A stretch of DNA of 64,000 nucleotides from Gammaproteobacteria bacterium (GCA_050123375.1 JASFHF010000003.1:2064-66063); one strand, 5' to 3'. Counted from the first letter of the stretch, positions 13,234-38,328 are shown. Made by a program: numbers and translations. Notes: a model not told the origin generated them from the sequence alone.

Positions 13234-14553
13234 TTATTTCTCCATGGTTATAGGGTTAAGTTTATCAAATAATCCTATGGCGTAAAGGGGATAATTATAT
13301 ACAATATCATCATGCTTAAAATTAAGCAAATTTGTTCTTAAGATGCTATTTGCTTTATATTTTTGTGCGTAAATTTTTAAACTTTTAGCAAGGGTTGATT
13401 TGCCGGCTTTAACTTCTAAAGGAAACACAACTGATTGATGTTCTAAAATAAAATCAACCTCAGCTGAGCCTGCGCTTGTCCAGTAGTAAAGTTGATCTGA
13501 ATTATTAGCTATTAATTCTTGTGTTACAAAATTTTCAGTGAATGCGCCTTTAAATTCTGTGAATAGTTCCGATCCTTGGGTAATGATTTTTGGTGATAAT
13601 TTGGCCATGGCGCCTAATAATCCCACATCTAACATATAAATTTTAAACGCAGATTTATCTGCGTATGCATCTAGTGGTAGTTTAGGTGTATTAATCTTAA
13701 AAGAATTATAAATTAAACCAGCATCTAATAACCATTGAATGGCTGTTTGATATTCCCGGGCTCGAGCACTTTTATGAATGGCTGCAAATATAAATTTTTT
13801 ATTTTCTTTAGCTAATTGGTTTGGAATAGATTGCCATATATTCATTATTTTCATTGTTTCATTTGCCGGTGCATGTTTTGCAAAATCTAAGGTGTAAGCA
13901 TCTAAAATTGCTTTTTGTATTTTTCTAACTTGAGAAAAATCATTCGCTTTAATAAAAATTTTTACTGCTTCAGGCATACCGCCAATCACTAAATATTGTT
14001 TCAGCAAATTTAATAAATCATCATGAAATAATTTATTAATGGGGTTAAAATTTTTTAAGGAAATTAATAATTCATAAAGCTTCTCTTTGCCCATTGCATT
14101 TAAAAACTCAAAAAATGACAATGGTTTTAATTCAAGAAAGTCAACTTTGCCAACAGGAAATCCTTTGCTGCGATTTAACTTAATGCCTAATAAAGATCCT
14201 GCTGCAGCAATGTGATATTCGTTGGCGTGTTCATTAAAATATTTAAGGCTATTTAATGCTTCCGGGCATTCTTGGATTTCATCAAAAATTATTAAGGTTT
14301 CTCCAGGAGAGATTGATTGATTAAAATGTATTTGTAAATTGTTGATAATGTTTGTTGGATTTATGTCCCCGGCAAAGAAAGCGGCGATTTTGGATGATTC
14401 TTCAAAATTCACATATATGCAATTGCGATATTCTTTAGCGAATTTTTTCAATATATATGTCTTGCCAACCTGTCTTCCGCCTTTAATAATCAAAGGTTTA
14501 CGGTATTTGTTGCTTTTCCAGGTTAGTAATGATGTATAAATTAATCTTTGCAT
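13234..14553 (-). CDS. AAA_14 ATPase with DUF4143 / PD-(D/E)XK C-terminus, paralog 1
   Basis: GGRQVGKT, IFDEIQ, GGMPE, EVDF...PLEVK. Confidence 0.88.
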   Translation of the reverse strand: MQRLIYTSLLTWKSNKYRKPLIIKGGRQVGKTYILKKFAKEYRNCIYVNFEESSKIAAFFAGDINPTNIINNLQIHFNQSISPGETLIIFDEIQECPEALNSLKYFNEHANEYHIAAAGSLLGIKLNRSKGFPVGKVDFLELKPLSFFEFLNAMGKEKLYELLISLKNFNPINKLFHDDLLNLLKQYLVIGGMPEAVKIFIKANDFSQVRKIQKAILDAYTLDFAKHAPANETMKIMNIWQSIPNQLAKENKKFIFAAIHKSARAREYQTAIQWLLDAGLIYNSFKINTPKLPLDAYADKSAFKIYMLDVGLLGAMAKLSPKIITQGSELFTEFKGAFTENFVTQELIANNSDQLYYWTSAGSAEVDFILEHQSVVFPLEVKAGKSTLAKSLKIYAQKYKANSILRTNLLNFKHDDIVYNYPLYAIGLFDKLNPITMEK

Positions 14554-14570
14554 AGGTACATTATGTTACA

Positions 14571-14645
14571 AAAACGTGATAATTTCCACATTTTTCCATG
14601 GTAAAACGTGATAATTCCCACGTTTTACCATGGAAAAACGTGATT
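14571..14645. repeat. Palindromic tandem array (32-bp period) upstream of DUF4143 paralog 1
   Basis: AAAACGTGAT at 14571, 14603 and 14635; perfect 20-bp inverted arms spanning 14591..14638. Confidence 0.85.
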
Positions 14646-14673
14646 TTGGGGTTTGGTGCAATAATGTTACAAT

Positions 14674-15387
14674 ATGATCGCTATGAAGAATATAAGAATC
14701 GTGTTAGTTAATCCTTCTCATCCCGGTAATATTGGTGCGGCTGCGCGTGCGATGAAGAATATGGGATTGCATTGTTTATATCTTGTGCAGCCTGAGAAGT
14801 TTCCACATCCAGAGGCGATTTACCGTGCTTCCCGCGCTGATGATATTGTACAGAATGCTAAGGTAGTAGCTACGCTAGATGATGCTTTGATTGGTTGTGC
14901 GCATGTGTATGGTACTAGTGCGCGTAAACGTGAAATGTCGGCGCCGGTAATTGATGTTCGTGAGATGGCGGAGATGATTGCAGAGAAACCCGTGGAAACT
15001 GCAATTGTTTTTGGCCGCGAAAAACACGGACTTTATAATGAGGAATTACAGCGTTGCCAATATCAAGTCAAAATTCCAACGGTTGATGATTATAGTTCTT
15101 TAAATCTTGGTGCCGCAGTGCAGGTAGTTGCGTATGAATTATATGTTGCAATGCAAGGAGATGCGCCTGAAATAACTCGTTCAACAGTCGAATTAGCCAC
15201 TGCAGATGAAATGGAGGGTTTATATCAACATTTAGAAAAAGTTGCGGTTGCAACCGGTTTTTTGAATCCGGAAAAACCAAAAACTATGATGCCGCGGTTT
15301 CGTCAAATTTTTAATCGTGCGCACCTTGATAAAGAAGATGTTAATTTAATTCGTGGAATGTTGGTTAAAATCGACAAATGTAAATAA
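14674..15387 (+). CDS. trmJ: tRNA 2'-O-methyltransferase TrmJ
   Basis: SHPGNIGAAARAMKNMG, FGREKHGL, YSSLNL. Confidence 0.93.
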   Translation: MIAMKNIRIVLVNPSHPGNIGAAARAMKNMGLHCLYLVQPEKFPHPEAIYRASRADDIVQNAKVVATLDDALIGCAHVYGTSARKREMSAPVIDVREMAEMIAEKPVETAIVFGREKHGLYNEELQRCQYQVKIPTVDDYSSLNLGAAVQVVAYELYVAMQGDAPEITRSTVELATADEMEGLYQHLEKVAVATGFLNPEKPKTMMPRFRQIFNRAHLDKEDVNLIRGMLVKIDKCK

Positions 15388-15408
15388 TAACGATAGAATA
15401 TTGATGTT

Positions 15409-16623
15409 ATGAAATTACCAATTTATCTAGACTACGCAGCCACCACTCCGGTTGATCCTCGGGTAGCGGAGAAAATGATGCAATGTATGATGCCTGATGG
15501 AGTTTTTGGCAATCCGGCTTCCACCTCGCATTCTTTTGGCTGGGATGCATCTGAATTAGTGGAAAAAGCCAGAAAACAGGTGGCTGATTTAATTAATGCA
15601 GATCCTAGAGAAATTATTTGGACTTCGGGAGCAACTGAGGCAGATAATTTGGCGATTAAAGGTGCAGCAGATTTTTATTCGCGTAAAGGTAAGCATATTA
15701 TTACCAGTAAAACTGAACATAAAGCTGTGTTAGATACCTGCAAATATTTGGCTAAAGAAGGTTATGATGTTACTTTTTTAACTCCCGAACCAAGTGGTCT
15801 GATTGATTTACAAAAATTACAAGATGCAATTCGCGACGATACAATTCTGATTTCTATTATGCATGTTAATAATGAAATTGGCGTGGTGCAGGATATTGCT
15901 GCAATTGGTGAAATTGCGCGCAAAAAAGAAATAATTTTTCATGTTGATGCAGCACAAAGTATTGGCAAGTTACCGATTGATTTACAGAAATTGAAAGTTG
16001 ATTTGATGTCGTTTTCCGGACACAAAATTTATGGTCCTAAAGGTATTGGTGCTTTATATATTAGACGTCAACCGCGGGTGCGTTTAACTACACAAATACA
16101 TGGTGGCGGGCACGAACGCGGTTTTCGTTCAGGAACTTTGGCAACTCATCAAATTGTTGGGATAGGTGAAGCTTTTCGGATTGCAAAAGATGAAATGGCG
16201 GAAGAAACTCAGCGATTTACTAAACTGCGCGAACGTTTGTGGGAAGGTATTAAGCAAATTGAGGCAATTCATCTTAATACTGATTTAGTACACAGTGCGC
16301 CGCATATTTTGAATGTGAGTTTTCACTATATTGAAGGTGAATCGTTGATTTTGGCGATTAAAGATATTGCGGTTTCAACCGGTTCAGCTTGTACCTCAGC
16401 CAGTCTTGAGCCATCTTATGTGTTGCGGGCTTTGGGGTTGAGTGATGAATTAGCGCATAGCTCAATTCGGTTTGCGGTAGGCCGATTTACTACTGAAGAA
16501 GAGATTGATTATACGGTACGATTAGTGCAAAATGCAGTGCAAAAATTGCGCGATATGTCGCCTTTGTGGGAGATGTATAAGAAGGGCGTAGATATAGAAA
16601 ATTATAACTGGGATAAGCATTGA
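15409..16623 (+). CDS. iscS: Cysteine desulfurase IscS
   Basis: [34 protein letters not shown]. Confidence 0.97.
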
Positions 16624-16630
16624 TGTATGC

Positions 16631-16697
16631 GGGACGGAGCTTTACATAATTACAAGTGCCTTGTTTGTTGCTTTGTAATCATGTAAAGCTCCGTCCC
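16631..16697. repeat. REPIN-like palindrome, family C
   Basis: GGGACGGAGCTTTACATAATTACAA ... TTGTAATCATGTAAAGCTCCGTCCC; second copy at 45412..45469. Confidence 0.85.
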
Positions 16698-16760
16698 TCA
16701 AGAAATCTAATTCATTACTTTGTAATTTGTAAAAACGTGATGTTACACATGAGGTGAAAA

Positions 16761-17177
16761 ATGACAGCAGAATCAAAATCAAAACCAAATTTAGGTTACA
16801 GTGAAAATTTAATGGATCACTACGAAAATCCACGTAACATTGGAACACTTGATGAAAATGATCCTAATGTTGGTACTGGAATGATAGGTTCACCTGCATG
16901 TGGTGATATTATGCGTTTACAAATCAAAGTAAATGATAAAGGCATAATTGAAGACGCAAAATTTAAAACTTACGGCTGCGGCGCCGCCATTGCTTCCAGT
17001 TCGGTTGCAACTGAATGGATCAAAGGCAAAACTTTAGATGAAGCATTGCAGCTTAAAAATGACAAAATTGTTGAATATTTAAAATTACCGCCGGTTAAAA
17101 TTCATTGTTCGATTCTAGCAGAAGAAGCGATCGCTGCAGCGATCAAAGATTATCGGGATAAGCATCAGAAAAAATAA
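16761..17177 (+). CDS. iscU: Fe-S scaffold IscU
   Basis: PACGD, FKTYGCG, LPPVKIHCS. Confidence 0.96.
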   Translation: MTAESKSKPNLGYSENLMDHYENPRNIGTLDENDPNVGTGMIGSPACGDIMRLQIKVNDKGIIEDAKFKTYGCGAAIASSSVATEWIKGKTLDEALQLKNDKIVEYLKLPPVKIHCSILAEEAIAAAIKDYRDKHQKK

Positions 17178-17178
17178 A

Positions 17179-17232
17179 AACGAAAACACCATGGTGTTTT
17201 CGTTAGATACTTAAAAAAACACCATGGTGTTT
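17179..17232. repeat. Two CCATGG-centred palindromes upstream of DUF4143 paralog 2
   Basis: Perfect 26-bp AACGAAAACACCATGGTGTTTTCGTT and 16-bp AAACACCATGGTGTTT, centres 33 bp apart. Confidence 0.85.
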
Positions 17233-17286
17233 ACTTGACTTCGTATTAAAACTACCCTATATTTTATTTAGGGGGTTAATATTGCA

Positions 17287-18651
17287 ATGTATAGAACAGC
17301 ACTGGCAGATTTACAGAATTGGCTTCAATCTAGTGATCGTAAACCTTTGGTTATGCGAGGGGCTCGTCAAGTTGGTAAAACTTGGCTAGTGCGGCAATTA
17401 GCAAAAATTACTGGTAGTCAGCTAATAGAGATAAACTTTGAGCAAAATCCGCAATTTGCTTCCATGTTTGAGAGTAATGATCCAAAGCAAATTATAATTA
17501 ACTTAGGTGCTGCTTTAAACACTACTATTGCGATTAGTAAAAGCATCTTATTTCTCGATGAAATTCAAACCGTTCCAGAGTTGTTAAGTAAATTACGCTG
17601 GTTTGCAGAAGATCTGCCTGAGTTAGCAGTAATTTCTACTGGTTCATTATTGGATTTTGTTTTAGCCGAACATAGTTTTAGCATGCCCGTAGGTAGGATA
17701 AGTTATTTACACCTGGAGCCTTTAACTTTTGAGGAATTTTTATTAGCAAAAGGACAAAAAAAGCTGTTTGAATTTATTCAAAATTTTAGTTGGCAAAATT
17801 CCATTCCAAAATTAATTCACGAAAAATTACTTAGCCTATTCAAGGAATATATAATAATTGGTGGCATGCCTGCTGTTACAGCTAGTTGGATTAAAAATAA
17901 TTCTCCGGTCGAAATAAACCGTCTTCATCATGAGCTTTTGACAGCTTATAAAGATGATTTTGCCAAATATGCAGGTAAAATTTCAACTGTTAGATTAGAA
18001 GAAGTATTAACAGCTTTTTCTCAAATGTTAGGAAAAAAATTCATCTATAATAAAGTAAATAAAGAAGTTTCTTACACTAGTATTAAAAATGCTCTGCAAT
18101 TATTGGTTAAAGCTGGAATATGTCATCAAGTGATTAGTACTGCTGCAAATGGCATTCCTTTAGGCGCAGAGATAAACACAAAATTTTTTAAAGTTATTGG
18201 AATAGATGTTGGATTAGTTTCCGCAGCGCTTAAGTTGGGATTACATCAAATGGATTCTATAACAGAAATAAACTTAATAAACAGTGGCGGTATTGCTGAA
18301 CAAGTTGTAGGGCAGCTTTTACGTACTATAGAACCAGGTTATATTGAACCATCTTTATATTATTGGGTAAGAGAACAAAAAAATTCTGCGGCAGAAGTAG
18401 ATTATTTAATACAGCATCAAAATAAAATTATTCCAATCGAGGTAAAGGCTGGCAGCACAGGTACACTTAAGTCGCTTCATTTTTTCATGGCGTTGAAAAA
18501 ATTGCAAACCGCGGTTCGAATAAATTCAGATGTTCCAACTATTACACAAATTAATACTAAAATTCATAATGGCAGCACGATAAAGTATCAATTAATTTCT
18601 ATACCATTTTATTTAACTCAGCAGCTTTATAGGTTGCTCGAATCTTGTTAG
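17287..18651 (+). CDS. AAA_14/DUF4143 ATPase, paralog 2
   Basis: GARQVGKT, FLDEIQ, GGMP, EVDY...PIEVK. Confidence 0.88.
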   Translation: MYRTALADLQNWLQSSDRKPLVMRGARQVGKTWLVRQLAKITGSQLIEINFEQNPQFASMFESNDPKQIIINLGAALNTTIAISKSILFLDEIQTVPELLSKLRWFAEDLPELAVISTGSLLDFVLAEHSFSMPVGRISYLHLEPLTFEEFLLAKGQKKLFEFIQNFSWQNSIPKLIHEKLLSLFKEYIIIGGMPAVTASWIKNNSPVEINRLHHELLTAYKDDFAKYAGKISTVRLEEVLTAFSQMLGKKFIYNKVNKEVSYTSIKNALQLLVKAGICHQVISTAANGIPLGAEINTKFFKVIGIDVGLVSAALKLGLHQMDSITEINLINSGGIAEQVVGQLLRTIEPGYIEPSLYYWVREQKNSAAEVDYLIQHQNKIIPIEVKAGSTGTLKSLHFFMALKKLQTAVRINSDVPTITQINTKIHNGSTIKYQLISIPFYLTQQLYRLLESC

Positions 18652-18680
18652 TAATTATTTATGACAACTTGATGACAAAA

Positions 18681-19553
18681 CTAATTAAATTTGTTGGTGA
18701 TAAAATTAATAAAATGGTGAATTTTAGGTTCGAGATATAAACTTTTTTTATAAAAAATATAGATTTTACGTTTTGGGGGAGCATATTCTTTTAAAAGCGG
18801 TACTAACAATCCTTGTTTAATTGCGTCTGCAACTATGTATTCATTCAAGGTTACAATGCCTACGCCGTTTATTGCTGCATACAGCATGGATTCTGCATCA
18901 TTGAGGTAAAGTTTTGGCTCCACGCAAACTTGTTGTTGATTGTTAAAATACAATATATTGTTAAGGTTACGCATACTATGCGTAATGTAATAATGTTGGT
19001 TAAGATCGGCAGGCGTATTTGGTGTTCCATGTTTTTTTAAATAAGAAGGAGAGCCGCAGATTACATAACGGCTTGCGGTTAATAATTTTTTACTTAGATT
19101 TGCTGCATCGATATAGTCAGAACCAAATATAATGTCAATATTTTCACATGCAAGATCCGGAGTTCTTTCGGCAACTTCAATATCTATAATTAATTTTGGA
19201 TAAAGTGTGCTAAGTTCCAATAAATGTGGAATTATATATTTTTTTGCAAAGTAACGGCCGCTGGTGATTCGCAATTTACCGGTCGGTTCTGAATGTAAAT
19301 GAGAAATTGCGCGTTCTGATTCGTCAACTGCTTCCAAAATTTGTTTGCAATGTTCATAGTAGATTTTACCAATTGCAGTTAAGGTGACATTTCTGGTTGT
19401 GCGGGTGAATAATTGCGTATTTAGTTTTTGTTCGAGTTTGGCGATTTGTTTGCTAATGGCTGGTGTAGTGACGTTAAGCTTGTCTGCTGTTTTTGAAAAG
19501 CCATTATTTTCAACAACTTGCACGAAGATTTTAATTAGTGATAATTCGCTCAT
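18681..19553 (-). CDS. LysR-family transcriptional regulator
   Basis: N-terminal HTH (FSKTADKLNVTTPAISKQIAKLE, LFTRTTR) plus substrate-binding domain. Confidence 0.93.
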   Translation of the reverse strand: MSELSLIKIFVQVVENNGFSKTADKLNVTTPAISKQIAKLEQKLNTQLFTRTTRNVTLTAIGKIYYEHCKQILEAVDESERAISHLHSEPTGKLRITSGRYFAKKYIIPHLLELSTLYPKLIIDIEVAERTPDLACENIDIIFGSDYIDAANLSKKLLTASRYVICGSPSYLKKHGTPNTPADLNQHYYITHSMRNLNNILYFNNQQQVCVEPKLYLNDAESMLYAAINGVGIVTLNEYIVADAIKQGLLVPLLKEYAPPKRKIYIFYKKSLYLEPKIHHFINFITNKFN

Positions 19554-19675
19554 AATTTATCCATTTTGTTAACCAAAAGGTTACATTTTATTGAGTTTTT
19601 GCTCTATTGTAAACTAAATTGTAGTGTATTATTATGCAACTCCTTTTTAATAATAATAACAGAGGAGGAAGTCAG

Positions 19676-20224
19676 ATGGCTTTTAGTAATGTTAATGGGT
19701 ACGATATTTTGAAGCAGGCTGAAATTGAGGAGGATAATAAAGAATCTCAATTAAAATCAAAAATCACAGCATTTTTGAGTGATGATAATAAACTAAAGGA
19801 AAAGATTCGACAGGATATTAAATCTTGGATGAAGAGTGCTAAATCAGGTTTATCTTTAAATCACGAAACATATGTTCAATCGTTATGTGCTATTTTCAAA
19901 ATGTTAGATAATACAGCATATCAAAAATACATTGAAAAAAATAATATATCAGTAAATTTGAATAAAAAACAGCAGTTAAACAGCAATGTTAATTTAAAAG
20001 TTATATTTGGGAAAACAAATAAATTGTGCAAATTTCTTTATAGTACTTTTTTTTATTCCGGAAATTCGCAAGCTGTACAATTACTTAGAATTTGGAAAAA
20101 TATAATAAATGAATTTGGTTGGGAAAAAACTGATGACTTAAGGAAGCTAAAAATAAAAGGTGAGAAGTTTATACCTACCGAAAAAAAGAATATTGAATTA
20201 AAAGATTTTAAATTTGGTCAATAA
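19676..20224 (+). CDS. Hypothetical protein divergent from LysR
   Basis: GGAGG RBS before ATG 19676 (ORF track starts at 19634); no known domain. Confidence 0.6.
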   Translation: MAFSNVNGYDILKQAEIEEDNKESQLKSKITAFLSDDNKLKEKIRQDIKSWMKSAKSGLSLNHETYVQSLCAIFKMLDNTAYQKYIEKNNISVNLNKKQQLNSNVNLKVIFGKTNKLCKFLYSTFFYSGNSQAVQLLRIWKNIINEFGWEKTDDLRKLKIKGEKFIPTEKKNIELKDFKFGQ

Positions 20225-20225
20225 A

Positions 20226-20361: not shown

Positions 20362-21528
20362 TTAATATTTTTTTGAAAAATATTTTTTAATTCCTTCTTG
20401 CCAAGGTAAAACTAAAATGTTTTCTATTTTTCTACGATATTTTTCTTTGGTTAAGCGAATTGCTTCGCATTTACCAAAATCTTTAGTTAATTTAATAAAA
20501 TTGGATAGTTTAGTGTCTGATACATTTATAGAGCTTTTTATCTCGATAAATAAAGTAGGCAATCCTGGTCGTTCCACGATTAAATCTATTTCAACGTCAT
20601 CTTTAGTTTTTAAGTATGAAAATTTAAATTCTGGATAGTAATACGATGCAAGTTTTATGCATTCTAAAATGATAAAGTGTTCGAAGGCTTCGCCGTATGC
20701 GCTGGTTCTTGGTTTTAATTCAGATGTTAAAGTGCGAGTTAACGCTCTGGTTACACCAATATCAAAATAATAAAATTTTGGTTTTAAACTTAAGCGTTTA
20801 CGAAATGAATTTTTAAATGGTTCTAAAAAGAAACCAAGCAAAGTATCTTCTAAAATAGAAAAATAGCTTTTTACTGTTTTGTGATCTACACCTACATCTT
20901 GTGATATATTATTGAAATTAATAATTTTTCCGTTACTTTGTGCCGAAACTTCTAAAAATTTTCTAAATGGATCTAGTTTTCTGATAAATTGTTCGTTCCA
21001 AATTTCTTCTTTTAAATAAGTATGTGCATAGGCGCGCAGGAATTGAATTTTTTCTTCACTGGTAGTAAAGCTAATTATTTCTGGTAAAGTGCCCCAGTTT
21101 AATACTGCATCTAAGTTAAATTTATCTTTTAATTCAAGAAATGAGAATGGAAATAAATGATAAACAAAGGCTCTGCCTGCTAAAAGATTTGCGCCACCGT
21201 GTTTTAATTTTCTAGCGCTTGAACCGGTCAAAATAAATTTTTTGTTAGTAACTCTAATCAAATGATGAATGACATCTAATAATTTTGGAATTTTTTGTAC
21301 TTCATCAATGATGATATGGGTTTGTTTTACCGGCATAGCATCGACTAATTCTTTTAACAAATTTGGATTACGCGCGAAACGATCTTCTTCAGCTGGATCT
21401 AATAAGTCAATCCATAAGGCTTGGGTTGTGGTAAATAATTGTTCTAGTAAAGTGCTTTTGCCGGTGCCTCTAGCCCCGAAGATAAAGAAGCTACGGTTTT
21501 TGGGTAGAGTTAATAATCTGGTTAGCAT
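20362..21528 (-). CDS. AAA_14/DUF4143 ATPase, paralog 3
   Basis: GARGTGKS, IIDEVQK, TGSSARKL, EIDL...FIEIK. Confidence 0.88.
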   Translation of the reverse strand: MLTRLLTLPKNRSFFIFGARGTGKSTLLEQLFTTTQALWIDLLDPAEEDRFARNPNLLKELVDAMPVKQTHIIIDEVQKIPKLLDVIHHLIRVTNKKFILTGSSARKLKHGGANLLAGRAFVYHLFPFSFLELKDKFNLDAVLNWGTLPEIISFTTSEEKIQFLRAYAHTYLKEEIWNEQFIRKLDPFRKFLEVSAQSNGKIINFNNISQDVGVDHKTVKSYFSILEDTLLGFFLEPFKNSFRKRLSLKPKFYYFDIGVTRALTRTLTSELKPRTSAYGEAFEHFIILECIKLASYYYPEFKFSYLKTKDDVEIDLIVERPGLPTLFIEIKSSINVSDTKLSNFIKLTKDFGKCEAIRLTKEKYRRKIENILVLPWQEGIKKYFSKKY

Positions 21529-21542
21529 TGTTATATTCCTTT

Positions 21543-21589
21543 TTAGACCATACTCCCAAATTGTACGCCATTTTGGGAGTATGGTCTAA
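21543..21589. repeat. Inverted repeat upstream of DUF4143 paralog 3
   Basis: 18-bp perfect arms TTAGACCATACTCCCAAA with an 11-bp loop. Confidence 0.85.
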
Positions 21590-21646: not shown

Positions 21647-21757
21647 GGGGTCAGGTCTTGAATTTTGACTTTGGCTTAATGGATAAAGATGGCAAAATTA
21701 GATTTTAAGTTTTAAATTAGGGTTTAAAATTCAAGACCTGACCCCGCTACGGAGTAA
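21647..21757. repeat. REPIN/MITE-like element, family A, copy 3
   Basis: GGGGTCAGGTCTTGAATTTT ... AAAATTCAAGACCTGACCCC followed by GCTACGGAGTAA. Confidence 0.9.
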
Positions 21758-26551: not shown

Positions 26552-28017
26552 ATTGTATGGAAAATCAATTATCTTTTGCTAAACAAGAATTATTAGAGCC
26601 GGCTGGTTTGGATGAAACAAAATTACAGCAGGTTTTGTCTGATATTTTAACTCATAAAGTTGATTATGCTGATTTATATTTTCAAGCAAATCATTCTGAA
26701 TCATGGGTATTAGAAGAAAGTATTGTTAAGCATGGTAGTTATAGTGTTGCGCGAGGTGTGGGAATACGTGCATTAAGCGGAGTTAAAACTGGTTTTGCTT
26801 ATGCAGATGAAATTGAGTTAACTAGTTTGCAGCGGGCAGCAGTTGCTGCGCGCAGTGTTGCTAATGTTAATACGCCACAAAAAGTTCAGTCCATTAATCC
26901 GGTTAAAGCTCATAGTTTGTATTCATCAATAAATCCTCTAAATACTTTGTCCGAAGAAAAAAAAGTTGCATTATTGCATCAGATTGATCAGGAGGCGCGC
27001 GCGCAGGATAAACGTGTTTCTCAAGTAATGGTAAGTTTAAGCGGTGTTTATCAAACTATATTGGTAATTGCAAGCGATGGTACTTTAGCTGCTGATGTTA
27101 GACCATTAGTTAGTATGAATGTTAGTGTGATTGCAGAAGAAGGTAGTCGGCGTGAACATGGTTCTTGCGGCGGCGGTAGTCGGGCTGGTTATGAATTTTT
27201 TCTCGAAGAAAATCGTTGTTTATATTACGCTAATTGCGCAGCAAGACAAGCTATTGTGAATTTATCTGCGGTTGCAATGCCGGCTGGAGTTATGCCGGTA
27301 GTGTTAGGTCCTGGTTGGCCGGGAGTATTATTGCACGAAGCAGTTGGGCATGGTTTAGAAGGTGATTTTAATCGCAAAAAAACCTCGATGTATGCTGACA
27401 AAATTGGTAAACAAGTTGCATCAAAACATTGTACCGTAGTTGATGATGGGACTTTAAAACAACGTCGTGGTTCAATAAATATTGATGATGAAGGAGTTCC
27501 ATCAGAACATACAGTCTTAATTGAAAAAGGAATTTTAAAAGGTTACATGCAGGACAAATTCAATGCACGATTGATGGGGGTAAAATCTACAGGAAACGGT
27601 CGTAGAGAAAATTATGCCAATTTAGTTTATCCGCGGATGACTAATACTTATTTAATGGCTGGTGAGTATATGCCGGAAGAAATTATTGCTTCCATTGACA
27701 AGGGCTTATATGCAGTGAATTTTTCTGGCGGGCAAGTAGATATTACTTCAGGAAAATTTGTTTTTTCTACTAGCGAAGCTTATTTAATTGAAAAAGGTAA
27801 AATTACTAAACCAGTAAAAGGCGCAACTTTAATTGGCAGCGGTCCGGAAGTGTTAAACCAGGTTTCAATGGTAGGGAATAATTTGCAATTTGATTTGGGT
27901 GTTGGTGTTTGTGGTAAAGAAGGTCAATCAGTAGAAGTTGGTGTTGGACAACCAACTGTTAAGGTTGATGAGATTACGGTTGGTGGTACTGGGGTCGGGT
28001 CTTCACTCATTACATGA
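26548..28017 (+). CDS. tldD: Metalloprotease TldD
   Basis: [30 protein letters not shown]; stop codon lies in a REP arm. Confidence 0.95.
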
Positions 28018-28059
28018 TGCAACATACAACGCATATGTAATGAGTGAAGACCCGACCCC
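27991..28059. repeat. REPIN, family B
   Basis: Perfect 25-bp arms GGGGTCGGGTCTTCACTCATTACAT. Confidence 0.92.
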
Positions 28060-30757: not shown

Positions 30758-30873
30758 ATGATTATGAGGTTTTGGGTGACTTTTTTCGACGACTAGCGCC
30801 CATGGATGGAAGCGCGGGAGACACATGGATGTGTCAGGGAGGAGAAAACAGTCACCCAAAACCTCATAATCAT
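30758..30873. repeat. Palindromic element with 24-bp arms (family E)
   Basis: ATGATTATGAGGTTTTGGGTGACT arms; GC-rich core with two CATGGATG motifs. Confidence 0.8.
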
Positions 30874-31326: not shown

Positions 31327-31338
31327 AATAAACTCTAA

Positions 31339-31632: not shown

Positions 31633-31650
31633 AGTTTTTCTCCTTTTTTG

Positions 31651-32379
31651 CTAAAGTTCAAAATCATCCCCTAGATAAATATCTCGTACAATCTTATTGT
31701 TTAAAATTTCTGTAGGGGCACCACTGTGAATAATTTTACCATTGTGCACAATGTATGCTCGATTACATACATCTAAAGTTTCACGTACGTTGTGATCGGT
31801 AATTAATATGCCTATATTGCGATTTTGTAAGTGTTGGATAATTTCTTTGATGTCGACCACGGAAATTGGATCAATGCCTGCAAACGGTTCGTCTAATAAA
31901 ATGAATTTTGGTTCATTAGCAAGGGCTCTAGCAATTTCTACGCGTCTTCTTTCACCGCCAGAGAGACTTAATGCGACATTATCACGTAATGATCCGATAT
32001 GGAATTCATCTAATAATAATTCTAGTTTTTCTAAACGTTGTTTTAGATTTAGTTCTTTTTGCAGTTCCAAAATAGCTAGAATATTGTCTTTTACAGTTAA
32101 TTTGCGGAATACAGAAGGTTCTTGCGGTAGGTAGCCTATACCAAGTCTTGCACGTTCATGCATGGGTAATTCTGTAATGTTTTGTTGGTCAAATAGTATT
32201 TTGCCTTTGTCGCTATTGATTAAACCAACAATCATATAAAAAGCAGTGGTTTTGCCAGCCCCGTTAGGACCTAGCAACCCTACGATTTCACCGCTATTGA
32301 CCTCTATGGTTACATCATCAACAACTTTGCGTTTGTAGCTTTTTTCTAAATGTTCAGCTCTAAGATTGCTCATATTCAA
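31651..32379 (-). CDS. lptB: LPS export ATPase LptB
   Basis: [39 protein letters not shown]. Confidence 0.96.
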
Positions 32380-32403
32380 TGCTATGTTAGCGGGTAAAGT
32401 GGT

Positions 32404-32994
32404 TTAAGGCAACAGCTTTGTTGAGCTGGTTTTGCCATATTGTCCATGTACATTAGATATTAATTTAATTACATTTTTATTCAAATCTGCTCGTAACCCT
32501 TTTGAATGAATAATACTGCCGGGTTGTTCAATAACAACTGGCTGGTGAGTAATTGCTAACGCTTTTTTAGGGTAATAAGTTAATTTGCTGGTAGTTAGAG
32601 TGATATTGTGACTATTTGGTCCTGGTAATTGTTGAGCTTTTACATGATCTGTTAAAATTATCGTATTTCCATTTTCGAGCGCTTGGCCGTGTTTTGCAGT
32701 AATATGCCATGGAGGCGCGTTTGGCACATTATGAATGATAAATGGAGCGTCAAAAGTAGTCTTATTTTGTTGGGTATAATTAAGAGCTTTGGTAGCAAAA
32801 AAAGTGTTTTCTAATTGTCCGCTTTTATTTACTTGTGTTACTTTGAGATCCATCATATAAGAATCCGGACTTAAGGATGAATATTTAGCAAATTTGATTG
32901 ATTTTGAAGTGAAAATAAACCAAAAACTAATAGCCACAATACAAATAAGAGTGATTAAAATGGCAATATTTTTTCTTTCAAATTCTATTTTCAT
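32404..32994 (-). CDS. lptC: LPS export protein LptC
   Basis: N-terminal TM helix, beta-rich domain (PWHITAKHG); sits between kdsD and lptB. Confidence 0.85.
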   Translation of the reverse strand: MKIEFERKNIAILITLICIVAISFWFIFTSKSIKFAKYSSLSPDSYMMDLKVTQVNKSGQLENTFFATKALNYTQQNKTTFDAPFIIHNVPNAPPWHITAKHGQALENGNTIILTDHVKAQQLPGPNSHNITLTTSKLTYYPKKALAITHQPVVIEQPGSIIHSKGLRADLNKNVIKLISNVHGQYGKTSSTKLLP

Positions 32995-33078
32995 AGGTAT
33001 TTATACTCATATTATGCTAATAGTGTATATTCAGCATCTTCATTGGCGATCGGTATATACATTTCGAGGAGTAATGTA

Positions 33079-34059
33079 TCATACTACTCCGGCTTGAAGT
33101 AAATCGTGCAGGTTAAATGCGCCAATAATTTCACGTTTTTGATCGACAACAAAAAAACCATTAATTTTACGTTCTTCCATAATATTTAATGCTTCAATTG
33201 CTAAATTATTTGCTGGGATGGTGGTAAATTTTTGTGTCATTACATCATCAATAGTAGTTTGATGCACGTTTACTCCATTATCAAGTGCGCGGCGCAAGTC
33301 ACCATCAGTGAAAATGCCGATCATTTCATTTTTATCGTTGGTGATTGCTGTCATTCCAAGGCTTTTTTGGCTCATTTCTACTAATGCATCCTTGAGTAAG
33401 GTTTTGGATCGTACTTGCGGGATACCAATACCGGTGCGCATAACATCAGAGACTTGCAGTAATAAGCGCCTGCCTAATCGTCCAGCTGGGTGTGAAAGGG
33501 CAAAATCCTCTTTGGTAAAGCCGCGTGTTTTTAATAAGGCGATGGCTAGAGCATCTCCTATTACTAATGCAGCAGTGGTGCTGGCGGTTGGGGCTAAATT
33601 TAATGGGCAAGCTTCCAAAGTAATGTCCAGGTTAATATTTATTGTGGATTGTTTGGCGATCGGTGATGAATCGTTGCCGGTAATCGAGATAAGTGGAGCT
33701 CCAATTCTTTTGATAGTCGGCAGAATGGTTAAGATATCTCTGGTTGATCCTGAGTTAGAAATAGCTAGCACTACGTCTTGCTTGGTTACCATGCCTAGAT
33801 CACCATGATTTGCTTCTGCTGAATGAACAAAAAATGCAGGGGTGCCGGTGCTGGCTAGAGTTGCAGCAATTTTGCGGCCAATATGGCCTGATTTTCCCAT
33901 ACCGGTGACTACAACACGGCCCTGGCAATTAAGGATTTGTTTGCAGGCATTATTAAAATTCTCATCAATTTTATCTAATAGGCTGTTAATTGCGTCCAGC
34001 TCTGTTTTAATTACTTCAGCAGCATAAGCACGAAAATCGTTATTTTTAATGGTAGACAT
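33079..34059 (-). CDS. kdsD: Arabinose-5-phosphate isomerase KdsD
   Basis: GMGKSGHIG, ASTGTP, SIS plus two CBS domains. Confidence 0.94.
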   Translation of the reverse strand: MSTIKNNDFRAYAAEVIKTELDAINSLLDKIDENFNNACKQILNCQGRVVVTGMGKSGHIGRKIAATLASTGTPAFFVHSAEANHGDLGMVTKQDVVLAISNSGSTRDILTILPTIKRIGAPLISITGNDSSPIAKQSTININLDITLEACPLNLAPTASTTAALVIGDALAIALLKTRGFTKEDFALSHPAGRLGRRLLLQVSDVMRTGIGIPQVRSKTLLKDALVEMSQKSLGMTAITNDKNEMIGIFTDGDLRRALDNGVNVHQTTIDDVMTQKFTTIPANNLAIEALNIMEERKINGFFVVDQKREIIGAFNLHDLLQAGVV

Positions 34060-34132
34060 GTTTCATTTTCTCCAGAATGTCATAATGTACCAGAAAGTAA
34101 GTGTCAAATCTAGATTTGAGTAGGCGTCAAAT

Positions 34133-34783
34133 TCAGATTTGATATCCATATATTTTTTCTGCATAAATGTAGTCATATACAGCTTTTGGCAGTGAATCAG
34201 TTGGTAATTTATGCTCATGCAGTTGTTTGCGAATTTTGGTTGCGGAGATTGGAATGGGGGTGATATGCAGTTGATAAATCAAGCCATTCGGTTTGTGTTG
34301 AAATGCAGTCGGATCAAAAATTTCGGAATTTTTTAATAATTCCTTAATTGATGAGGATATTTCGATTTTGACGCCAAGCCTGTTTATTACAATAAAATTT
34401 GCATAATTAGTTAATTGTTGCCACTGATGCCAGGTATCAAGGTTTGCAAATGCATCGGTTCCAAGAATTAAGCAGAGAGAATTATTAGGGTAATCTTTCT
34501 TTAATGATTGTAAAGTATCAATCATAAATGAAGTGCCTTGACGCTTTATTTCCCGGTCATCAGCAATAAAATTCGGATAATCTTTAATTGCTAGTTGTGT
34601 CATAGTTAAGCGTTGTGCAGCAGTTGCAATAGGTTGATAACGATGTGCGGGTGTGTGGCATGGAATAAAAATAACTTTTTGTAGATTACATTTTTTTAAC
34701 GCATATTCAGCAATTTTAATGTGTCCAAGATGAATTGGATCAAACGTTCCGCCTAAAATGCCGATGGGAGTTAAATTATCCAT
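34133..34783 (-). CDS. nadD: Nicotinate-nucleotide adenylyltransferase
   Basis: GGTFDPIHLGH, ISATKIR. Confidence 0.95.
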   Translation of the reverse strand: MDNLTPIGILGGTFDPIHLGHIKIAEYALKKCNLQKVIFIPCHTPAHRYQPIATAAQRLTMTQLAIKDYPNFIADDREIKRQGTSFMIDTLQSLKKDYPNNSLCLILGTDAFANLDTWHQWQQLTNYANFIVINRLGVKIEISSSIKELLKNSEIFDPTAFQHKPNGLIYQLHITPIPISATKIRKQLHEHKLPTDSLPKAVYDYIYAEKIYGYQI

Positions 34784-34916
34784 ATTAATAATTGTACTTA
34801 GTTGTGACGAAATGCCAACAATTTTTTGGAATTTTATGTTAAACTGCGTTTTATGCTCATTGCATTTGGAAATGTGGAATTTATAGAAAAGACTGATAGT
34901 TTGTTGTTAAATTGGA

Positions 34917-35009
34917 ACTCGTAATTTTACAACCAGTTTGTTTTTGTAAAATTACGAGTCAGCAAGCATGAGAATAACTAAAAAAAACGCAGATCTACCA
35001 TGCGCGGTA
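34917..35009. repeat. Structured repeat, family D, copy 1
   Basis: ACTCGTAATTTTACAA...TTGTAAAATTACGAGT hairpin; homologous in reverse to 47615..47708. Confidence 0.75.
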
Positions 35010-35098
35010 GCTGCCACAGAAATTTAATAGGTGATTTTGTCAGTTATAAATCTCGCATCTTGAGATGATATTGGTATATATTTTATTGGGGTGATCTT

Positions 35099-36025
35099 AT
35101 GGCCTTATTGTTTATTTCTAATTTCAAAAATGCAGATTCGTGGGTGAAAGAGTTTCACAATCAGGCTAGAGATATAGAGCTTTATGTTTGGCCGAGAATT
35201 GTAGATGTAGAAAAAGTTGAGTTTATTGCCGTTTGGAGTTATGAAGACATTGATTATAATGTTTTTCCGAATTTAAAATGCATTTCCTCATTGGCTGCAG
35301 GAATTGATCATCTTGATTTAAAAAAAATTCCGCAAGAAATATCTGTTACACGTATAGTTGATCCTGCAATGCGTACTCAAATGTCAGAATATGTGATCAT
35401 GGCTGTATGTAATTATCGTAGGCATTTAATTGAGTACAAATTTCAACAGCATACAAAGGTTTGGACTAAAATTCCGGAAATTGATATGGCTGATTTGACG
35501 GTTGGTGTTATGGGGGTTGGTAGTCTTGGAATGGATGCAGCGCTAAAACTACAAGCGTTAGGCTATCCAGTGATTGGCTGGAGTTATTCGCCAAAACCTG
35601 ATGCAGAAATAACGGTTTTTTCCGGGAAAAAAGGTTTGCAGGATTTTATTGCACGCAGCAAAATTTTAGTTTGTTTTTTACCAGTTACCGATAAGACTGA
35701 AAATATTTTGAATCGTGCAACTTTATCACAATTACCCAAAGATGCTTATTTGATTAATGTTGCGCGTGGTGCTTTATTGGTTGATGAGGATTTGATTTCT
35801 TTGTTAGATAGCAATCATTTGTTTGGCGCATGTTTGGATGTTTTTCGTAAAGAGCCTTTGCCGTTAGAGCATCCATTTTGGCATCATCCAAAAATTATTG
35901 TAACTCCGCACATGTCTTCTAACCCGATTTTTAAAAATGCGGTCAAACAAATTATTGCCAATTATCGTCGAATGAAATCTGGTGAAGAGTTACTAAATGT
36001 AGTTGATAAAAATAAAGGTTATTAA
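35099..36025 (+). CDS. ghrA: Glyoxylate/hydroxypyruvate reductase A-like 2-hydroxyacid dehydrogenase
   Basis: GVMGVGSLG, INVARG, LDVF..EPL, TPH. Confidence 0.85.
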   Translation: MALLFISNFKNADSWVKEFHNQARDIELYVWPRIVDVEKVEFIAVWSYEDIDYNVFPNLKCISSLAAGIDHLDLKKIPQEISVTRIVDPAMRTQMSEYVIMAVCNYRRHLIEYKFQQHTKVWTKIPEIDMADLTVGVMGVGSLGMDAALKLQALGYPVIGWSYSPKPDAEITVFSGKKGLQDFIARSKILVCFLPVTDKTENILNRATLSQLPKDAYLINVARGALLVDEDLISLLDSNHLFGACLDVFRKEPLPLEHPFWHHPKIIVTPHMSSNPIFKNAVKQIIANYRRMKSGEELLNVVDKNKGY

Positions 36026-36064
36026 CCGGAAACGATTATCTGCTTATTTTCCCACAAATTAATG

Positions 36065-37261
36065 TTATTTACACCAATGTTCTATTGGGATTTGTAAAAA
36101 TTCTTTGAGTGGAATGCCATTACCGCCTATTAATAATATATGTTTGGGATTATATTTTTCTTTAAAGGTTTTCATGCCGGGTAATGCATTTTTAGTGATT
36201 CCGCTTTTAACTTCAATTGCAATTAAATTACTATTGTAACGTAATACGAAGTCTATTTCTTTGCTTAGTTCGCGCCAATAAAATAATTCTATATTTTTTC
36301 CAATTATATTATTTAATAAATAAGCTCCGACAGTTGATTCAACTAGTCTTCCCCAATATTCGCGATTTAATTGTGCGGCGTTAAAAGCAATATTAGATTG
36401 AGCTGAAATTAAAGCGGTATTTAATACTTGTAATTTAGGGCTGGAAGCACGTTGCCTAACATATCTTGCAGAAAATTTGTCAATACCAGCTAACATTCCA
36501 GCATTTTCCAAAAGTTTTAAATAATGTGATAAAGTTGTAGTGTTGCCGGCATCTTGTAATTGTCCCAACATTTTTTGAAAAGATAAAATTTGTCCAGAAT
36601 AATGGCATCCTAATTGAAATAGTTGGCGCAACAAAGATGGTTTTTTAACGGAGCTAACTAATAAAATGTCACGTGATATAGTAGTTTCAATCAATGAGTT
36701 TCTAATGTAATTTGACCATCGCGCTTCGTCATTGATTAATGGTGCAGCGCCTGGATATGCTCCAAAGAAAATATATTGTTCTAATGTCCAGTTAAAAGCT
36801 TGTTGCATTTCAACAAATGACCAATGTGTTATTGGGATTATTTCGAAACGCCCAGCTAAACTTTCAGTTAAACCTTGCTGAATAAGTAGTTTTGATGATC
36901 CTAAAAGTACAACCTTAAGAGGAATGTTATTTCGTAAATCTTCGTCCCATAGTTTTTTGATGGTTTCTGACCACTTAGTAATTTTTTGAATTTCATCCAA
37001 GACTAATATTGCATAAGAGGATTTTCTTGCTTTGATCCTTCCGATTTCCCATTGCTGTTCAATCCATGTTTCGTTGAATGAATTGATGTCATCCGCGGAA
37101 GCGTAATGATAAGATTGCTCCAGGGTTTTTATAACTTGTTGAATTAAAGTGGTTTTTCCTACTTGGCGAGGGCCGGCTAAAATTTGTATAAAACGTTTTG
37201 GTTCTTGCAGTCTTGCAAGAACTTGTGCAAAAATAAATCGTTTAAACATAGTTTTATCCAT
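36065..37261 (-). CDS. AAA_14/DUF4143 ATPase, paralog 4
   Basis: GPRQVGKT, LDEIQK, ESLAGRF, EIDF...AIEVK. Confidence 0.88.
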   Translation of the reverse strand: MDKTMFKRFIFAQVLARLQEPKRFIQILAGPRQVGKTTLIQQVIKTLEQSYHYASADDINSFNETWIEQQWEIGRIKARKSSYAILVLDEIQKITKWSETIKKLWDEDLRNNIPLKVVLLGSSKLLIQQGLTESLAGRFEIIPITHWSFVEMQQAFNWTLEQYIFFGAYPGAAPLINDEARWSNYIRNSLIETTISRDILLVSSVKKPSLLRQLFQLGCHYSGQILSFQKMLGQLQDAGNTTTLSHYLKLLENAGMLAGIDKFSARYVRQRASSPKLQVLNTALISAQSNIAFNAAQLNREYWGRLVESTVGAYLLNNIIGKNIELFYWRELSKEIDFVLRYNSNLIAIEVKSGITKNALPGMKTFKEKYNPKHILLIGGNGIPLKEFLQIPIEHWCK

Positions 37262-37320
37262 TGTATTGAGTAAAATTACTCATTATGTTGAGTAATTTTA
37301 CTCAATACACTGAGTAAATT
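37262..37320. repeat. Palindromic tandem array (22-bp period) abutting the DUF4143 paralog 4 start
   Basis: TGAGTAA..TTACTCA units at 37267, 37289 and 37311 (partial); 21-bp perfect inverted arms spanning 37262..37309. Confidence 0.85.
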
Positions 37321-37326
37321 CAATGA

Positions 37327-38328
37327 TTATCTACTTAATTTTATACTCAAAGACAATAACACATCCCAAATATTACCAATTTCTGCACCTTTGATAACGC
37401 GGTCAACTTTAGCTGCAAGACGTAATAATTGAAATAGTGATTTTTGATTGTGGCGTTTTAGTGCAAGTCTGACAAAAGGTTTTCTTTTTTCCCATACGTG
37501 GTTTTTATAAAGGATATTATTGATTGATTCTCCTTGTTGTAATTGGTGTTGCATTAAAGATAAATTACGAATTTCACGTGCTAATGTCCATAATATCAAA
37601 ATTGGTTCAGCGCCTTCATCTTTTAAACCAGTTAAAATGCGGGTGGTGCGTTTTGTGTCACCGCTTAATGCGGTGTCTGCTAAAGTGAATACATCAAAAC
37701 GTGCATTATCACTGATTGCTGCAACTACTTCTTGTAGAGTTAAGTGCTTTTTATCGTATAATAAAGTAATTTTTTCGATAGCTTGTTTGGCGGCTAATAA
37801 ATTACCTTCAGTATTTTCTGCTAAAAAGTTAATTGCATTTTTATCTATGGTGATGTTATGTTGTTTTAATTGTTGTGTAATCCAATTTGGTAATTGTTGT
37901 TTTGCCACTGGCCAAATTTGTACAAATACACCAGTTTTTTCAACTGCTTTATACCATTTAGTATTTTGTGTTGGGGCGCTAAGTTTTTTAGTAATAATTA
38001 GCAGGATTTTGTTTTGTGGAGGATTGGCGGCATAATCTTGTAAAGCTTTTTTTCCAGCTTCATTTATTTTGTCACTTGGCATACGCAGCTCTAATATTGA
38101 ATTATCATCAAATAAAGACAGACTATTAGCGCTGGCTAGTAGATTATTCCAATCAAATTTGGAGTTAACATGAAAAACTTGCCGTTCGGTAAAATTATTT
38201 TGTTGTGCGTGTTTACGAATTATCATGGATGCTTCTTCAACCAATAAGATTTCATCGCCGCCAATTAAATAAATTGGTGACAATGATTTGTTTAAAGTTG
38301 ATTTTAGGCGGTCAATGGTGATTTTCAT
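37327..38328 (-). CDS. holA: DNA polymerase III delta subunit
   Basis: YLIGGDE, SLSLF, EGNLLAA; leuS-lptE-holA synteny. Confidence 0.94.
   Translation of the reverse strand: MKITIDRLKSTLNKSLSPIYLIGGDEILLVEEASMIIRKHAQQNNFTERQVFHVNSKFDWNNLLASANSLSLFDDNSILELRMPSDKINEAGKKALQDYAANPPQNKILLIITKKLSAPTQNTKWYKAVEKTGVFVQIWPVAKQQLPNWITQQLKQHNITIDKNAINFLAENTEGNLLAAKQAIEKITLLYDKKHLTLQEVVAAISDNARFDVFTLADTALSGDTKRTTRILTGLKDEGAEPILILWTLAREIRNLSLMQHQLQQGESINNILYKNHVWEKRKPFVRLALKRHNQKSLFQLLRLAAKVDRVIKGAEIGNIWDVLLSLSIKLSR

Follow-up and report, generated by a model that had tools for sequence, protein, structure and literature searches.

Clade-specific phased palindromic arrays upstream of AAA_14/DUF4143 ATPase-nuclease genes and their apparent co-divergence with the encoded proteins

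A 64,000-nucleotide stretch of gammaproteobacterial DNA (GCA_050123375.1, JASFHF010000003.1:2064-66063; hereafter the window) contains four divergent genes, g1 to g4, each encoding a protein of the AAA_14/DUF4143 family, in which a P-loop ATPase is joined to a PD-(D/E)XK nuclease-like domain. Directly upstream of each gene lies a symmetric DNA element of its own, a phased palindromic array at g1, g2 and g4 and a single long dyad at g3. Comparison with relatives of these genes in other phyla supports the view that the array travels with the gene, and that its sequence diverges with that of the protein while its period remains fixed within a clade. This pattern is in keeping with a protein that recognises the array of its own gene, probably for autoregulation. 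The reading that we favour, and regard as fairly probable, is that each protein would bind its own phased operator and regulate its own gene, as part of a self-contained cassette moved horizontally between genomes. The genes themselves are new members of a known, uncharacterised family; phased, clade-specific arrays that move and change together with the gene have, to the extent of our searches, not been described for that family before.

The four genes and their upstream elements are listed here with window positions; E-values are for Pfam AAA_14 and DUF4143 respectively, followed by the best PADLOC model of the defence candidate PDC-S01.

g1, 13234-14553, minus strand: 439 aa; 7e-29 and 4e-37; PDLC04786, E 2e-175
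g2, 17287-18651, plus strand: 454 aa; 8e-24 and 2e-26; PDLC04788, E 4e-154
g3, 20362-21528, minus strand: 388 aa; 3e-27 and 9e-31; PDLC04790, E 1e-61
g4, 36065-37261, minus strand: 398 aa; 5e-26 and 6e-25; PDLC04791, E 7e-178, aligned from residue 5
array 1, 14571..14648, no strand: half-site lattice AAAACGTG / CACGTTTT with GTGA-N6-CCAC dyads, 32-bp period, 2.5 units, in the divergent g1-trmJ spacer
array 2, 17179..17232, no strand: 16-nt palindrome AAACACCATGGTGTTT twice, at 17184-17199 and 17217-17232, 33 bp apart
dyad 3, 21544..21588, no strand: TAGACCATACTCCCAAA, 11 nt, TTTGGGAGTATGGTCTA; arms of 17 nt (21544-21560 and 21572-21588), the dyad ending 15 nt from the g3 ATG
array 4, 37266..37322, no strand: TGAGTAAAATTACTCA-type palindromes, 22-bp period, 2.5 units

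Recurrence of the upstream arrays across phyla

Even the nearest homologues of g1, which come from Chlamydiae, Verrucomicrobia and Gammaproteobacteria metagenome-assembled genomes (MAGs), share only 65% identity with it. One scan of species-representative genomes returned 80 loci (L numbers below) with g1 relatives at 36-60% identity, from at least ten phyla, the source genome and its near relatives not being among them. These loci form 53 clusters at 80% identity or more, of which the 51 with at least 150 bp of upstream sequence were kept (L018 and L069 were dropped); two more genes, shorter than 420 aa (L014 and L024), were left out of the tree and of the Mantel tests. A sequence-agnostic test for direct repeats, requiring at least 12 matches in 14 within the 200 bp upstream, was positive for 32 of the 51 relatives, and in 28 the best offset was exactly 32 or 33 bp. 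Among control upstream regions, taken from other open reading frames (ORFs) of the same loci, 73 of 533 reached the repeat score and 9 of 533 did so at 32/33 bp. At least two half-sites of the form AA[AT][AG][CT]GTG were present in 19/51 upstream regions, as against 1/533 other upstream regions and 3/3011 tiled windows, and none of 49 downstream regions held two. Between adjacent half-sites the distance is 32 or 33 bp for 18 of 22 pairs in the same orientation, and 16 or 17 bp for 17 of 18 opposed pairs. Given these spacings the g1-clade array, as read from sequence, is a regular lattice of alternating dyad axes, all predicted to lie on one face of the helix.

The best alignments of array 1, taken in the orientation of its gene, are with sequence upstream of Chlamydiota genes, the region at L005 giving a Smith-Waterman score of 82. 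Cross-phylum pairs of upstream regions reach a Smith-Waterman score of at least 30 in 30 of 904 cases, the fraction after shuffling being 0.0006. When the unit sequences are ordered on the g1-clade protein tree they fall in blocks, consisting of CGTGA-N6-TCACG dyads, direct AAAATGTGATA repeats, ATTCG-N-CGAA together with AAATGT units, and several idiosyncratic types. Upstream local-alignment score and protein identity are correlated over 57 loci (Mantel Spearman 0.31; as high in 0 of 2000 permutations), while the downstream control over 53 loci gave r=0.08, a value reached by 131 of 2000 permutations. The initial annotation of the window had proposed that protein and array co-diverge, and that palindrome sequence should be compared with protein phylogeny as a check; both the Mantel test and the clustering of motif types on the tree support this. 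Six g2-like plasmid genes (29-39% identity) include four with a 32-33-bp period, their unit sequences being quite different, and no sequence relative of array 2 was found among these six loci.

Relatives of g4 were located by tblastn on plasmids of Coxiella burnetii (62%), Thermus oshimai (52%), Bacteroides finegoldii (48% and 45%) and Collinsella (42%), with one further relative in L023. The best upstream direct repeat in this clade, the window counted, is 22 bp in five of seven loci, 21 bp in one and absent in one. A Bacteroides plasmid relative bears ATTGAGTAAAATTA three times, which is nearly the unit of array 4 in the window, and others have TGAACA-type variants. For g3 the relatives are a Simkania negevensis plasmid gene (58%) and genes on Treponema, Moraxella and Wolbachia plasmids (27-30%). 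A single long dyad, with arms of 11-22 nt and no more than 120 nt from the ATG, is found at all five g3-clade loci, the window counted, and at 12 of 200 controls; a GGAGTAT / TTGGAGT-like half-site is common to g3 of the window, the Simkania and Treponema genes and a second paralogue in L020.

That paralogue, at L020 20472-21216, is one of four cases in which a second divergent AAA_14/DUF4143 gene stands next to the first, the others being L019 11364-12683 (minus strand), L023 3136-4317 (minus strand) and L010 7294-8311. Each of these second genes has its own, differing upstream repeat, so the stacking of paralogues with distinct arrays is not unique to the window. The nearest relatives of all four window paralogues belong to amoeba-associated or intracellular lineages (Chlamydiae, among them plasmids of Simkania and Criblamydia, and Coxiella plasmids; compare L081, L086 and L090), a distribution which hints at gene exchange within that niche.

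The four loci of the window

Pfam profile searches of the window ORFs found both AAA_14 and DUF4143 in all four proteins, and PADLOC gave a full-length PDC-S01 model match for each (E 1e-61 to 7e-178); a tblastn search revealed no fifth AAA_14/DUF4143 copy in the window. NCBIfam models assigned the proteins to no family above cut-off, the sole match, to replication factor C at E 0.002, falling far under it. Identity between g1 and g2 is 34%, and between the remaining pairs 22-27%. The neighbours recognised by Pfam are Inositol_P (suhB-like), SpoU methylase (trmJ-like), IscS, IscU, ClpB, the DNA polymerase III delta subunit (holA), LptE, LeuS and a cytidylyltransferase (nadD-like). Thus g1 has the suhB-like gene on one side and the trmJ-like gene heading iscS-iscU on the other; g2 follows iscU; g3 is divergent from clpB; and g4 is flanked by holA (of leuS-lptE-holA) and by a 2-hydroxyacid dehydrogenase gene with the nadD-like gene. 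The initial annotation had described four divergent singleton paralogues placed in or beside core gene blocks, the first two being the most alike, and in all of this it was correct; its array coordinates proved right to within a few bases when the sequence was read. The host, judged by its ClpB, is an uncultured gammaproteobacterium, since that protein is 98% identical to one from a gammaproteobacterial MAG and about 77% identical to those of Legionella species.

In array 1 the 22-nt unit AAACGTGATAATTYCCACRTTT occurs at 14572-14593 and 14604-14625, a third half-site reaching about 14648, and the direct repeat matches at 14/14 positions at offset 32. Array 2 likewise matches at 14/14 at offset 33, and its first copy lengthens to a 26-nt palindrome right behind the iscU stop codon. 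Array 4, with TTGAGTAAAATTACTCAA-type units at 37266-37283 and 37288-37305 and a partial third at 37311-37322, occupies the 65-nt gap from the holA stop (37327) to the g4 ATG. A distinct symmetric array had been ascribed to every gene; this holds for arrays 1, 2 and 4, but the feature at g3 is a single dyad and not an array. Similarly, arrays 1 and 2 do both have the CCATGG centre that had been noted in them, but in different contexts (TTTT-CCATGG-AAAA in array 1 and AAACA-CCATGG-TGTTT in array 2) and at a position that varies among g1 relatives.

Each array or dyad motif is restricted to its own locus in the 64 kb, where shuffled sequence would be expected to give 0.01-0.58 matches. Ranked by the best inverted repeat in the 120 nt upstream, the four genes stand 2nd, 5th, 6th and 8th among 62 window ORFs; by our own arithmetic the probability that all four fall within the top eight is about 1e-4. 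A palindrome alone is not special in this genome, because at least three families of palindromes resembling repetitive extragenic palindromic elements or miniature inverted-repeat transposable elements (REP/MITE-like) occupy other intergenic regions of the window, among a total of 96 inverted-repeat pairs. These families have 2-6 loci each and are thus dispersed, unlike the array motifs.

The copies of one such family lie at 5050-5149, 12323-12423 and 21647-21745, of a second at 27991-28059, 38872-38931, 41417-41497, 42716-42740 and 45362-45386, and of a third at 16637-16691 and 45418-45462; the spacer of g3 and clpB contains one copy, and another separates iscS from iscU. Two more long inverted or repeated elements, at 30758-30873 and 49456-49535, are away from any ATPase-nuclease gene: one has 30-nt arms with 97% identity, and the other is a duplicated ATCCCGCGG...CCGCGGGAT palindrome directly upstream of a tRNA gene (49626-49698). 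That tRNA was the only Rfam match over the whole window, with no RNA family at the arrays.

Beside the ATPase-nuclease cluster lie an HTH_3 ORF (8364-8681), an AbiEi antitoxin-like gene (8919-9713) and an AbiEii toxin-like gene (10438-11151), which by sequence constitute a second, AbiE-like defence-type system at window 8364-11151. An IS200-like Y1 transposase gene (9942-10373) sits between the AbiEi-like and AbiEii-like genes; such a nearby transposase could mobilise the REP/MITE-like elements of the window. The g1 stop codon is 3 nt from the start of the suhB-like gene (13228-13236), whose GGAGA ribosome-binding site lies inside the 3' end of g1, so that suhB is probably transcribed from the g1 promoter and may be controlled by array 1. 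On the other side of g1, in the array 1 spacer (14554-14690), the extended -10-like element TGTTACAAT ends at the annotated trmJ ATG (14674), and because of this the true start of trmJ may be the ATG at 14684. There is no iscR gene between trmJ and iscS.

Protein fold and a putative recognition helix

An AlphaFold2 model of g1, built from a 78-row alignment, has a mean predicted local distance difference test score (pLDDT) of 91.4 and a predicted TM-score of 0.91. It comprises, in order, a P-loop domain, a helical lid, a winged helix (helix-helix-helix-strand-strand, about residues 228-308) and a mixed alpha/beta domain bearing D367, E380 and K382. The Walker A residues R27, G30, K31 and T32, the Walker B residues D91 and E92, and the D367...E380-x-K382 signature are conserved in two alignments; the 78-row alignment shows no variation at G30, K31, D91, E92 and E380 and at least 90% conservation at D367 and K382. 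A Foldseek search of the PDB returned as best matches the archaeal AAA+ proteins SSO1545 (2fna, E 1e-9) and PAB2304 (2qen, E about 1e-9), followed by Orc1/Cdc6 and origin recognition complex (ORC) subunits, some of them DNA-bound (2v1u and 2qby, with origin DNA, and 1fnn; E 1e-6 to 1.5e-5), and by CED-4/Apaf-1. The TM-scores of these AAA+ matches are low (0.24-0.45), no member of g1-g4 belongs to the Cdc6/ORC Pfam family above threshold (ATPase_2 appears only below it), and phmmer of g1 against the PDB gave no match. The protein is modelled with high confidence as an ORC/Cdc6-like (STAND-like) AAA+ ATPase to which a winged helix and then a PD-(D/E)XK domain are joined. Modelled alone, the C-terminal half (residues 205-439) has a pLDDT of 89.9, and its weak best matches are the PD-(D/E)XK nucleases VC1899, McrC, Can2, Cdn1 and FokI together with MarR-type winged-helix regulators.

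Within the third helix of the winged helix, residues 263-268 of g1 (ARAREY) are conserved where the half-site is GTG/CAC and replaced where the motif differs, the flanking residues still being conserved. At least two GTG/CAC half-sites were present at 26 of 30 loci with a helix of the form A[RK]xR[EDN][YF], compared with 3 of 27 with other helices (raw Fisher p 6e-9). Residues 263-268 are a putative recognition helix, and the comparison is suggestive of its varying with the motif.

Promoter geometry

At g1 a promoter-like TGGAAA-17-CATAAT (14588-14560, minus strand) lies inside the proximal unit of array 1 and ends 6 nt before the ATG. At g2, TTGACT-17-TATATT (17235-17263) directly abuts the second copy of array 2. 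At g3, TAGACC-17-TACAAT (21588-21560, minus strand) has its -35 in one arm of dyad 3 and its -10 in the loop, and at g4, TTGAAT-17-TAAAAT (37323-37295, minus strand) falls within array 4. Among the g1-clade loci listed, the final half-site starts 54-58 nt before the ATG in 11 of 20, with a TTGACA-like hexamer some 20 nt further on, a spacing from which it follows that in those loci the half-site lattice ends at the -35. The lattice of the window g1 is one period nearer the ATG than in those relatives.

Upstream of the g1 relatives in L002, L005-L010, L012, L020, L028 and L095, three features are spaced at fixed distances: the last half-site, a TTGACA-like hexamer and, some 6 nt short of the ATG, a TAnnnT hexamer. 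No Shine-Dalgarno sequence is visible. This arrangement suggests leaderless transcripts in that subclade. As a general idea for the family, leaderless mRNA was rejected: a -10-like hexamer 4-9 nt before the ATG occurs in 4/57 loci and 36/558 controls, and is thus not enriched.

A single-gene unit

A survey of the 88 nearest-neighbour ORFs of 49 g1-clade loci counted about 50 metabolic or housekeeping genes, 23 without a Pfam family, 5 regulators and 10 that are defence- or mobile-like, namely ParE, RloB, Schlafen/AlbA_2, AAA_21/15, GmrSD, one integrase, PRiA4_ORF3, ParB and two more DUF4143 genes. Since no conserved partner gene was found among them, the unit appears to be a single gene. Relatives of g1 are rare in phage records (13/50,697). 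Horizontal spread of the cassette is evident, while a means of self-mobilisation is not. The four window cassettes have no flanking direct or inverted repeats or target-site duplications above shuffles, and no transposase or integrase is regularly adjacent in the survey, in which one neighbour of the 88 is an integrase. The initial annotation had gone further in envisaging a one-gene unit that is self-regulating or self-mobilising. By comparison, the single gene and the travelling, co-diverging array support the former, but self-mobilisation finds no footing in these counts or in the 49 downstream regions, which are empty of arrays.

Proposed mechanism and points against it

On the favoured reading each of the four genes would form a cassette of promoter, operator array and one protein. 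Each paralogue would use its winged helix to read the half-sites of a lattice that overlies or adjoins its promoter. Dimers, or else a short oligomer dependent on nucleotide, would sit on two to three phased dyads along one face of the DNA. The dyads would be spaced by three helical turns in the g1/g2 clade and by two in the g4 clade, the g3 clade having one long dyad. Occupancy would set transcription of the gene itself, most likely by repression, because the g3 and g4 clades and the window g1 place their sites over the core promoter. Half-site sequence and recognition helix would drift together, so that one genome could accommodate four paralogues free of cross-talk, and gene and operator could move jointly between phyla. 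In this scheme we infer binding by the protein itself, the sign of regulation, the oligomeric state and what the ATPase-nuclease does once active.

Several observations weigh against such a scheme. The 32/33-bp repeat is missing at threshold in 23 of the 51 g1-clade representatives, and in some g1-clade loci (L001, L009, L022, L036 and L077) no array is obvious, while the g3 and g4 comparison sets are small (five and seven loci). Foldseek with the winged helix and nuclease portion of g1 (residues 205-439) gave no match at E 0.001 or below, and the MarR-type regulators match it at E above 0.1 only. The association of helix with motif, taken by phylogenetically independent contrasts, is reduced to 3-4 pairs, too few for significance to be reached. 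The promoter-like hexamers at the four arrays are no more frequent than in shuffles, and for that reason they are only consistent with an operator model. Many relatives have their array upstream of the -35, yet in the window g1, g3 and g4 it lies over the core promoter, which complicates the sign of regulation.

Alternative explanations

The arrays might instead be assembly or parking platforms in the manner of ORC or DnaA, on which the protein nucleates and is held inactive or loaded, any effect on transcription being secondary. We consider this improbable as a full account, while giving it some weight. The fold comes closest to that of AAA+/winged-helix initiators, whose targets are repeated origin elements (2v1u, 2qby), the lattice alternates two-fold axes every 16-17 bp, and in many relatives the array is upstream of the core promoter and not on it. 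What tells against a platform is that the arrays are always 5' of the gene at a fixed distance from the start codon, and that the g3- and g4-clade sites overlap promoter-like hexamers or the 5' untranslated region; it is this position that gives the arrays their operator-like look. Nor was any AT-rich unwinding element or second array seen.

It is quite improbable, although not negligibly so, that host transcription factors bind the arrays and control the genes, with no binding by the ATPase-nuclease. The CRP/FNR consensus is TGTGA-N6-TCACA, and the cGTGA-N6-cCACa units of the array 1 type, with their A/T-tract flanks, resemble it; regulators of the CRP/FNR family occur in many phyla, and the common placement of the last half-site 54-58 nt before the ATG puts dyad centres near the classic positions of class I activators. 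The resemblance and the wide occurrence of such regulators also count against the favoured reading. Array 1, moreover, faces trmJ-iscSU as well as g1. Arrays 2-4 do not resemble TGTGA-N6-TCACA. Four unrelated host factors would be required in one genome, each of them preserved alongside one particular ATPase clade across hosts as distant as Chlamydiota, Bacteroidota, Actinomycetota and Bacillota. In addition the motif is nearly absent from other upstream regions of the same loci (1/533), and its type changes with the protein's own helix. The CRP-like appearance of the array 1 units, which the initial annotation had remarked on, is real, but a host factor is an unlikely reason for it, given four motifs in one genome that are each conserved with their own clade in other phyla.

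A third possibility, that the arrays are ends of a mobile element or recombination sites through which the ATPase-nuclease mobilises itself, seems to us very improbable. The genes do occur as singletons among housekeeping genes, here and in relatives (about 50/88 neighbours), their nearest homologues are in other phyla, and some plasmid copies adjoin integrases. Arrays are found at one end only, however (0/49 downstream), without target-site duplications or terminal inverted repeats above shuffles in the four cassettes; integrase neighbours are rare (1/88); and g1, 3 nt from a suhB-like gene whose ribosome-binding site it contains, is unlike a recent insertion. The last alternative, that chance has placed ordinary palindromes of the intergenic regions (REP-like elements, terminators or RNA hairpins) next to the genes, is scarcely credible: the window is rich in inverted repeats and in REP/MITE-like families, the first array 2 palindrome is directly behind the iscU stop and terminator-like patterns are flagged at arrays 1 and 2, but the four motifs are unique in the window and unlike the REP families, Rfam has no RNA family there, related arrays stand upstream of homologues in other phyla far above controls, and the enrichments in half-site, period and g3/g4-clade features over controls largely refute it.

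Relation to known systems

In a published listing, DUF4143 (COG1373) appears as a PD-(D/E)XK family of unknown function (PMC3424549). A passage on PDC-S01 describes an ATPase fused to a PD-(D/E)XK domain, ranks it fourth in abundance among prokaryotic defence candidates, on 29,494 instances in bacteria and 9,986 in archaea, and notes that validation is pending for most such candidates (PMC12988326). According to a passage in another report, PDC-S01 is the most frequent single locus in rumen genomes (PMC13356809). One PDC-S01 representative was tested in E. coli B against T7, T5 and T4 and was not among the four candidates reported as protective (bioRxiv 10.1101/2024.09.26.614923, PMC12881386), which counts against a defensive role of the kind considered here. 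A table in a further paper includes an AAA_14/DUF4143 gene of Thermus thermophilus among genes with expression changed by the presence of plasmid DNA (PMC4406477), and a figure legend in a preprint on a Legionellales symbiont includes DUF4143 among protein-domain families. The family is very common and has no known mechanism or positive functional test. Phage or plasmid defence is the leading candidate role for the window genes, as we infer it, because the family is PDC-S01.

The window proteins share with PDC-S01 their full-length model matches, the ATPase plus PD-(D/E)XK architecture and the single-gene unit; the published passages describe no cis elements, sequence specificity or autoregulation. 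What is new is the clade-specific phased arrays together with their co-divergence from clade to clade with the protein. More widely, the literature passages retrieved on DUF4143, COG1373, PDC-S01 and PF13635/PF13173 contain nothing on upstream repeats, DNA-sequence specificity or autoregulation; the paper defining the PDC systems was not found among them.

What the window proteins have in common with Orc1/Cdc6 (2v1u, 2qby), SSO1545 (2fna) and PAB2304 (2qen), the structures that the g1 model matches best (E 1e-9 to 2e-6), is a winged helix behind an AAA+ module; the resemblance is at the level of the fold only. They differ in that there is no membership by sequence, TM-scores are low, g1-g4 add a C-terminal PD-(D/E)XK domain, and there is no sign of an origin. 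The nuclease half invites comparison with the PD-(D/E)XK effectors McrC, Can2/Card1/Cdn1 and VC1899, which are its weak best fold matches (E 3e-3 to 2e-2) and with which it shares the conserved D...ExK; the matches are, however, below usual significance, and g1 has neither a CARF domain nor a McrB-type partner.

As to the DNA element, archaeal orc1/cdc6 genes sit beside inverted repeats bound by their own product. In autoregulated defence and toxin-antitoxin loci (BrxR/CapW-type regulators, type II antitoxins), a winged-helix or helix-turn-helix repressor binds inverted repeats at the promoter. The palindromic operators of such loci, at the promoter of a potentially toxic gene within a self-contained, transferable unit, are close to what is proposed here, but in the window genes the presumed DNA-binding domain is fused into the effector, and the sites are phased arrays of clade-fixed period. 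CRP/FNR operators resemble the g1-clade sites in dyad shape, A/T flanks and one-face phasing upstream of the -35; they differ in that the g1-clade sites are tied to one gene family and not to a regulon, form 32-33-bp lattices, and have sister clades with unrelated motifs.

Implications for the family

A bolder version of the favoured reading can be put forward, tentatively and with the odds in our view set against it. PDC-S01 proteins at large would be sequence-specific, ORC-like AAA+ switches, each lineage having a private lattice that co-evolves with its winged helix; the lattice would serve both as autoregulatory operator and as a platform holding the nuclease as an inactive, DNA-bound oligomer until a trigger arrives, orthogonal half-sites would let paralogues stack, and the cassette would work in any host. 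If this were true, a host-independent cassette of promoter, operator and gene would explain the spread of the family across phyla and into housekeeping blocks.

The conserved, clade-specific cis element leads to the family's first concrete molecular prediction, that the winged helix would bind DNA sequence-specifically at defined sites, and the four orthogonal pairs in the window offer a natural set for comparing cognate with non-cognate combinations. The arrays could also act as a genomic signature for sub-typing the family, and they may be the reason why toxic nuclease genes stay silent and why a genome can carry several paralogues at once.

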